A stretch of DNA of 64,000 bases, from NCBI RefSeq assembly GCF_045037415.1, contig NZ_CP173438.1, one strand, 5' to 3'. Positions 23,515 through 24,036 of this stretch are shown here, piece after piece. The DNA comes from Escherichia coli (GTDB lineage: Bacteria > Pseudomonadota > Gammaproteobacteria > Enterobacterales > Enterobacteriaceae). Made by a program: the position numbers and the translations under genes. The notes under the pieces were generated by a model that was not told where the DNA came from, did no database searches, and saw only the letters and a list, made by a program, of their open reading frames with translations. How positions within the stretch are numbered: the stretch's first letter is position 1; every line of letters begins with the position of its first letter.

Positions 23515-24036
23515 ATGTCAAAGCCAAAATACCCTTTTGAAAAGCGCCTTGAAGTCGTGAATCACTACTTCACAACTGATGATGGTTACAGGATCATCTC
23601 GGCACGTTTTGGTGTCCCCCGAACCCAGGTCAGGACATGGGTTGCCCTCTATGAAAAACATGGAGAAAAAGGTTTAATTCCCAAACCTAAAGGCGTTAGT
23701 GCTGATCCAGAGTTGCGTATTAAGGTCGTGAAAGCTGTGATCGAGCAGCACATGTCCCTTAATCAGGCTGCTGCTCACTTTATGCTTGCTGGTAGTGGTT
23801 CTGTAGCCAGGTGGCTGAAGGTCTATGAAGAGCGCGGAGAAGCTGGTTTACGCGCGCTCAAGATTGGCACCAAAAGAAACATTGCAATATCAGTTGATCC
23901 AGAAAAAGCGGCATCAGCATTGGAGCTGTCAAAAGACCGACGCATTGAGGATCTTGAAAGGCAAGTTCGATTTCTTGAAACGCGGCTTATGTATCTAAAA
24001 AAGCTGAAAGCCTTAGCTCATCCCACGAAAAAGTGA
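23515..24036 (+). CDS. insJ: IS150 OrfA (HTH DNA-binding protein), 173 aa
   Basis: Recognised IS150 orfA; internal to the IS. Confidence 0.9.
   Translation: MSKPKYPFEKRLEVVNHYFTTDDGYRIISARFGVPRTQVRTWVALYEKHGEKGLIPKPKGVSADPELRIKVVKAVIEQHMSLNQAAAHFMLAGSGSVARWLKVYEERGEAGLRALKIGTKRNIAISVDPEKAASALELSKDRRIEDLERQVRFLETRLMYLKKLKALAHPTKK

Follow-up and report, generated by a model that had tools for sequence, protein, structure and literature searches.

The single copy of IS150 in the 64,000-nt stretch of Escherichia coli DNA analysed here (the window) carries the canonical, experimentally established −1 programmed frameshift signal of that element in intact form, with the slippery heptamer A_AAA_AAG at positions 23997–24003 of the plus strand. 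The site is already known and is an ordinary one for this element. We favor simultaneous-slippage −1 frameshifting at A_AAA_AAG, with the IS150 signal intact in a reference-identical copy, and put the probability of this reading at roughly 0.95. An earlier note on this DNA, made from its letters and a list of open reading frames, had described the heptamer as a candidate shift site; the signal is a textbook one, and both the observation and its interpretation were right.

The element and its reading frames are laid out as follows, in window coordinates and with the source of each assignment in parentheses.

23468–24910, plus strand: IS150 insertion sequence, 1443 bp, with TG...CA ends (identity to the IS150 of NC_000913.3)
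23465–23467, unstranded: left copy of the target-site duplication AAG (reconstitution of the empty site of strain Z247)
24911–24913, unstranded: right copy of the target-site duplication AAG (reading of the flank)
23468–23491, plus strand: left imperfect terminal inverted repeat, TGTACTGCACCCATTTTGTTGGAC (by-eye comparison with the right end)
24887–24910, minus strand: right imperfect terminal inverted repeat (reading of the end)
23515–24036, plus strand: orfA (insJ, InsA), 173 aa, helix-turn-helix DNA-binding (ORF list, Pfam, K-12 insJ annotation)
23997–24003, plus strand: slippery heptamer A_AAA_AAG, the −1 shift site (register, match of the fusion product, relatives)
23979–24884, plus strand: orfB frame, −1 relative to orfA (reading of the open frame)
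24033–24884, plus strand: annotated insK (InsB), 283 aa, HTH_21 and rve DDE core (K-12 annotation, Pfam)
23515–24003 joined to 24003–24884, plus strand: predicted OrfAB transposase, 456 aa (exact NCBI match, NF033516, PGAP)

All 1443 bases match the IS150 of E. coli K-12 MG1655 (NC_000913.3, 3720633–3722075, annotated as 'insertion sequence:IS150' with insJ and insK). This bears out the name that the earlier note had given the element, and it means that the heptamer carries no mutation relative to the reference. The termini read TGTACTG...CAGTACA with AAG on both flanks, and the left end agrees with the reverse complement of the right at 18 of 24 positions when compared by eye. When IS150 and one AAG were removed from the window, the 200 nt compared showed 0 mismatches to the unoccupied hokA locus of strain Z247; IS150 thus arrived by clean transposition, duplicating 3 bp of target. 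Pfam placed HTH_28 (4e-23), HTH_29, HTH_32 and HTH_23 in OrfA, and rve (3e-29), rve_2, rve_3 and HTH_21 in OrfB. Residues D301, D361, E397 and K404 of the fusion were invariant in an alignment of nine diverse relatives. The IS150 group is defined by a helix-turn-helix orfA and an rve orfB with D(60)D(35)E followed by a conserved K (PMC5771124). The window copy has all of the group's features: sequence identity, TG...CA ends with a 3-bp duplication, the HTH and DDE domains, and a −1 overlap with an AnG window (here A6G). The 3' end of orfB also contains a 15-bp inverted repeat with a 5-nt loop (24833–24867), 43 nt from the right end of IS150. It has a terminator-like score on the minus strand, where it is followed by TTTAATTT, and it could stop transcription entering IS150 from the right side.

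The heptamer AAAAAAG was read directly at 23997–24003. Local codons in the orfA frame are CUA AAA AAG, which places it in register as A_AAA_AAG over Lys162-Lys163, its AAG being orfA codon 163. Between its last base (24003) and the orfA stop (TGA, 24034–24036) lie exactly 30 nt. The −1 frame is closed by TGA at 23976–23978 and then runs open from 23979 to TAA at 24882–24884, and both frames are open over 23979–24033, an overlap of 55 nt. Position, register, distance to the stop and the overlap of orfB in the −1 frame are thus all as the earlier note had claimed. Within this overlap A_AAA_AAG is the sole in-frame X_XXY_YYZ. It keeps the upstream register, and the −1 frame, open from 23979, runs through it, which is the canonical arrangement for −1 programmed frameshifting. 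The bare motif was discarded as evidence: AAAAAAG occurs 23 times on both strands of the window against 15.0 ± 3.9 expected (at least 23 in 4 of 100 shuffles), which is not a significant enrichment. What stands above chance is not the seven bases alone; it is the frame of the heptamer, its position where both frames are open, the hairpin that follows after 6 nt and the conservation in relatives. A frame-0 AUG (Met158, 23989–23991) lies two codons ahead of the heptamer and could be where InsB begins, as a short frame-0 peptide whose translation shifts into orfB. The Met158 codon is not conserved among close relatives: an IS150 variant of 98.8% identity (L003) has GUG there, and ISKpn8 (L002) has ACG.

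The product of a slip was predicted by reading orfA to 24003 and then re-reading from 24003. This gave a 456-aa protein with RLMYLKK before the junction and AESLSSSHEK after it. The sequence matches exactly the NCBI entry 'IS3-like element IS150 family transposase', with 2037 members in the 90%-identity cluster, and it scored 414.7 bits against the NCBIfam model NF033516 for IS3 family transposases (cut-off 160). By megablast many E. coli genomes carry 100%-identical copies at the same locus. At the one such locus inspected, on an O25b:H4 chromosome, the PGAP/RefSeq entry 'IS3-like element IS150 family transposase, programmed frameshift' is a CDS of 1370 nt in two pieces. The proposal that this is the IS3-family arrangement for a fused OrfAB is therefore corroborated by the identity of the 456-aa slip product with the NCBI IS150 transposase and by the PGAP label.

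The earlier note had also asked how the heptamer compares with the published IS150 site, and the two are the same. Sharma et al. 2014 (PMC4066793) assign insJ to cluster A_AAA_AAG_37 ('Fam IS3/grpIS150/IS150 [true]') and give for IS150 insJ 163 aa to the motif, a frameshift product of 456 aa and a frame-0 product of 173 aa; the window copy yields the same three values. In its IS150 entries PMC4066793, citing Vogele et al. 1991, treats IS150 as a case of proven −1 frameshifting stimulated by a stem-loop. The transframe protein of Vogele et al. 1991 is likewise cited as proven there and in PMC8254509, and PMC5771124 cites the frameshift efficiency of IS150 as about 50%. Frameshifting at the site and its dependence on the stem-loop are in this way taken from the literature. 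The original IS150 study reportedly found proteins of 19, 31 and 49 kDa, with about one third of the ribosomes shifting. All signals are said to lie within a stretch of 83 bp that is characterized by A AAA AAG and a potential stem-loop; a mutation in the stem-loop reportedly caused an 80% loss of frameshifting, and expression of ins150B (InsB) is itself said to involve frameshifting. For the window copy, we infer from the sequence that frameshifting occurs at this site in this strain and that the element is active. The copy may fairly be taken as translationally competent, because its ORFs, ends, catalytic residues and frameshift signal are intact.

Directly downstream of the heptamer the RNA is predicted to fold into a hairpin with these parts.

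24004–24009, plus strand: spacer CUGAAA, 6 nt, between heptamer and stem (MFE fold)
24010–24019, plus strand: 5' arm of the hairpin, GCCUUAGCUC (MFE fold, pair counts, RNAalifold consensus)
24020–24047, plus strand: 28-nt loop with the orfA stop TGA (24034–24036) and the GTG (24033–24035) annotated as the insK start (fold, K-12 annotation)
24048–24057, plus strand: 3' arm of the hairpin, GAGCUAAGGC, overlapping the Glu-Leu-Arg codons of orfB (fold, pair counts, RNAalifold)

Folding of 23990–24075 gave the 10-bp stem 24010–24019/24048–24057 with its 28-nt loop. The minimum free energy of this 86-nt stretch was −20.4 kcal/mol (z = −3.3), a value equalled by 1 of 200 shuffles. The downstream stem-loop for which the earlier note recommended a search is accordingly present, with 10 bp of stem beginning 6 nt after the heptamer and −17.0 kcal/mol for the 48-nt hairpin alone (24010–24057; −14.9 kcal/mol for the stem only). 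Among 1395 48-nt windows of IS150 (mean −8.05, sd 3.5), this hairpin had the lowest energy. By the rules of PMC4066793, a stimulator begins 4–10 nt after the motif, is closed by a G-C pair with no fewer than 3 others, and takes at least 7.6 kcal/mol to unfold; the hairpin, closed by G24010-C24057 and with 10 pairs in total, conforms to these rules. Examination by eye revealed neither a Shine-Dalgarno-like stimulator in the 30 nt upstream of the heptamer nor a convincing pseudoknot between the loop and downstream sequence. No frameshift-element family matched IS150 in an Rfam scan.

Conservation of the signal was assessed in relatives gathered without use of the frameshift region, through OrfB peptide motifs or tblastn. 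Loci L002–L015 came from blastn and tblastn against plasmids, and loci L017–L095 from viral contigs scanned with the OrfB peptide patterns PNEKWVT and DQGWQY. The orfB frame of each locus was placed by local tblastn and the orfA frame was then read. The resulting set comprised 58 distinct elements with both frames intact and 49–100% OrfB identity, ranging from Proteobacteria to Bacillota (hosts Enterobacteria, Ralstonia, Bacillus, Enterococcus and metagenomic). The in-frame heptamer of the overlap was A_AAA_AAG in 38 of them, A_AAA_AAA in 13, A_AAA_AAY in 4 and U_UUA_AAG in 1, with none in 2; A6 followed by G or A thus stood in frame in 51 of 58. The Leu codon ahead of the lysines had A at its wobble base in 52/52 distinct cassettes, where Leu has six codons to choose from, and the first Lys codon was AAA in 51/52. 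We read the fixed Leu wobble base and Lys AAA as synonymous-site constraint beyond the conserved YLKK peptide.

The stem was aligned without use of pairing, its 5' arm being set by distance from the heptamer and its 3' arm by distance from the OrfB motif RSTFYY. Standard pairs filled 89.2% of 520 cells in the 52 cassettes, compared with 17.5–49.8% when the 3' partner was slid by 1–3 columns. Compensatory changes occurred at four stem pairs (23 cells), among them U-A to C-G and, in 10 sequences, G-C to A-U. The observed covariation score was reached by 0 of 500 column shuffles, a count that is not a probability since the sequences are related. Plain MAFFT alignment of the contiguous sequences put the arms in the same columns and gave the same numbers. 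RNAalifold returned no consensus structure for all 52 cassettes, probably owing to the variable loop of 28–46 nt and to seven members with other structures. For the 23 members of the long-stem group it returned the same stem, with 11 pairs at −14.4 kcal/mol and double changes in 5 pairs. Both arms are coding, for Ala-Leu-Ala/Val in OrfA and Glu-Leu-Arg in OrfB, and so part of the stem conservation is protein constraint. Motif and structure nevertheless appear conserved beyond protein constraint, as is canonical for programmed frameshifting, in sequences that are related and in arms that are both coding.

Seven relatives lack the 10-bp long-loop stem (L009, L013, L026, L043, L044, L075 and L089). 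Three of these, from Ralstonia-like and Enterococcus sources (L009:665–749, L026:1635–1719 and L013:747–831), keep the in-frame A_AAA_AAG and have, by eye, other local hairpins about 6–7 nt past the heptamer, e.g. GCCCUGCUGC...GCAGCAGGC and ACCUUGAUU...AAUCAAGGU. Because these three carry a different hairpin at the same distance, the comparison suggests that what is kept is a structure and not this particular stem sequence. On the Klebsiella michiganensis plasmid p8BG (L005:723–732), A6G is broken (AAAGAAG); the stem remains intact, and U_UUA_AAG is found in frame 3 nt upstream. A transposase CDS of 1370 nt, the length expected of a −1 frameshifted gene, is nevertheless called there by PGAP, and the position of slippage may have changed by a single codon. 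Four IMG/VR contigs (L032, L033, L034 and L049) keep the spacer and the GCCUUGGUUU/AARCURAGGC stem with A_AAA_AAT or A_AAA_AAC in place of A_AAA_AAG. Their open stretch in the orfA frame is shorter (118–127 codons), and they may be decaying copies or users of a weaker heptamer.

The mechanism that we propose for the window copy is the following. A ribosome translating orfA would reach CUA-AAA-AAG with lysyl-tRNAs on AAA in the P site and AAG in the A site. At that point the 10-bp hairpin, 6 nt downstream, would lie at the mRNA entrance, resist unwinding and stimulate the slip. E. coli has a single tRNA-Lys, with the anticodon UUU, which decodes AAG weakly and makes A_AAA_AAG especially shift-prone. 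A fraction of the ribosomes would move back one base, the tRNAs re-pairing on AAA-AAA. For shifted ribosomes the next codon would be GCU, starting at 24003, and translation in the orfB frame would give the 456-aa OrfAB, in which the HTH DNA-binding domains would be joined to the DDE catalytic core. Unshifted ribosomes would terminate after another 30 nt with the 173-aa OrfA as their product, and for this reason the efficiency of frameshifting would set the ratio of transposase to regulator.

Similar signals are used elsewhere, with different accessories. IS911 has an upstream Shine-Dalgarno-like element and a more complex structure, and IS3 has a pseudoknot. The E. coli dnaX gene has an additional upstream Shine-Dalgarno-like stimulator, and its shift yields a truncated, not an extended, protein. 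In IS150, by contrast, the 10-bp stem is simple and its loop long, and no Shine-Dalgarno-like element was seen by eye upstream. What IS911, IS3 and IS2 share with IS150 is A_AAA_AAG in a −1 overlap of orfA and orfB, a downstream RNA structure, and production of OrfAB together with a separate OrfA (PMC4066793, Table S7); their OrfA and OrfB sequences and their stimulators differ from those of IS150. dnaX (gamma/tau; cluster A_AAA_AAG_6, PMC4066793) likewise slips through tRNA-Lys on A_AAA_AAG, with a stem-loop beginning within a few nt of it on the downstream side, but it is a cellular gene whereas IS150 encodes a transposase. IS1 (A_AAA_AAC, InsAB') likewise fuses a DNA-binding ORF to a catalytic ORF by a −1 shift on an A-rich heptamer; unlike IS150 it belongs to another IS family and has a weaker heptamer, very low efficiency and no established stimulatory structure (PMC4066793). 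The closest comparison is the −1 signal of IS150 itself in K-12 insJ/insK (Vogele, Schwartz, Welz, Schiltz & Rak 1991, Nucleic Acids Res 19:4377). The two elements are the same at every base, and the published signal likewise has A_AAA_AAG at codon 163, products of 173 and 456 aa and a downstream stem-loop. Only the chromosomal setting differs, the window copy lying in the hokA leader with another junction and in the opposite orientation.

Other explanations for the arrangement were weighed against ribosomal slippage. Because the site is a homopolymeric A run, and because 13 relatives have A7 instead of A6G, RNA polymerase might gain or lose an A in the A6 run and so put orfA and orfB in one frame with no ribosomal shift. 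Six A's are, on the other hand, a short run for efficient polymerase slippage, and a single codon register with a hairpin at a constant 6-nt spacing matters to the ribosome and not to the polymerase. Transcriptional slippage has been reported for some IS3-family relatives (IS1447, PMC6211511), but the IS150 entries of PMC4066793 class this element as proven ribosomal and stem-loop-stimulated, and we consider slippage by the polymerase extremely unlikely here. Only slightly less improbable, and still very unlikely, is that the heptamer is a by-product of the Leu-Lys-Lys (YLKK) at the end of OrfA, with no recoding role and a silent copy in this strain. The YLKK peptide is indeed invariant at the protein level in nine diverse relatives, and the bare motif is common in the window (23 copies). 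A generic scan for promoters and terminators near orfA returned nothing above chance, and thus no promoter-like site. Constraint on the peptide does not account for the frozen synonymous sites (Leu wobble always A, Lys AAA in 51/52 cassettes), nor for the most stable hairpin of the element lying 6 nt downstream and covarying. Without a shift there would be no plausible expression of full-length orfB, whose DDE domain needs the HTH domains that OrfA supplies at the N-terminus, and the published evidence backs the site (PMC4066793).

Termination and reinitiation deserve more weight, since the GTG at 24033 overlaps the orfA TGA at 24034–24036 (GUGA), K-12 insK is annotated from that GTG, and both codons lie in the hairpin loop, which terminating ribosomes would open. 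OrfB might then be made mainly alone, adding to frameshifting or partly replacing it. Direct reading found no Shine-Dalgarno sequence ahead of the GTG, however, and the 283-aa OrfB made in this way would lack the HTH domains of OrfA. The original study, moreover, reportedly found frameshifting to be involved in the expression of ins150B itself. We judge OrfB production mainly by this route to be unlikely. Reinitiation at GUG 24033 could coexist with the frameshift at 23997–24003, and is not a replacement for it. Ribosomal −1 frameshifting at A_AAA_AAG remains the reading that we prefer.

The insertion lies in the leader of the hokA/sokA type I toxin–antitoxin locus, in sense orientation and about 75 nt upstream of the hokA start, immediately 3' of the hokA promoter region and about 75 nt into the leader. 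The Rfam sok family (RF01794) is split by it into a left part at 23391–23467 (89.3 bits) and a right part at about 24911–24987 (43.9 bits), and these two halves of the hok/sok leader were the only real Rfam matches. By its position within the leader, IS150 parts the hokA CDS (24985–25137) from the promoter region and the leader sequence upstream. On either side lie glyS (glycine--tRNA ligase beta subunit, 21148–23217, plus strand) and cspA (cold-shock protein, 25325–25537, minus strand), in the standard E. coli neighbourhood glyQS-hokA-cspA-yiaG. The junction of flank and IS150 (23408–23527, at least 80% coverage) was found in 1131 of 5426 complete E. coli genomes, with 100% matches that include O25b:H4-type genomes, and the empty site in many others; the insertion is therefore an old, lineage-marking one. 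K-12 MG1655 (L016, NC_000913.3 3720633–3722075) has the identical IS150 in the same hokA/sokA locus in opposite orientation. Its junctions show no matching AAG duplication, and about 38 bp of the leader are missing on one side. From the opposite orientation and the different junctions it follows that the K-12 and window copies are independent insertions into the same target of about 100 bp.

A literature search yielded nothing useful on InsA or InsB of IS150 or on hokA with IS150. Two further readings are conceivable, although we regard them as improbable: read-through from the hokA promoter might feed translation of orfA and orfAB, and the stop and GUG in the loop might couple termination, hairpin opening and InsB initiation. 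If the read-through were real, this lineage-specific copy would be an unusually well-expressed source of IS150; if the loop coupling were real, the site would act as a three-product switch.

For the IS150 group, the comparison makes a modest addition: from Proteobacteria to Bacillota, conservation with covariation extends to the 10-bp stem with its long loop and to the 6-nt spacing. The practical consequence is one of annotation only: a single transposase gene spanning both ORFs, with a programmed −1 frameshift at 24003, should be entered in place of two genes or a pseudogene. The copy should be regarded as potentially mobile, which bears on the stability of the genome in those E. coli lineages that have it.
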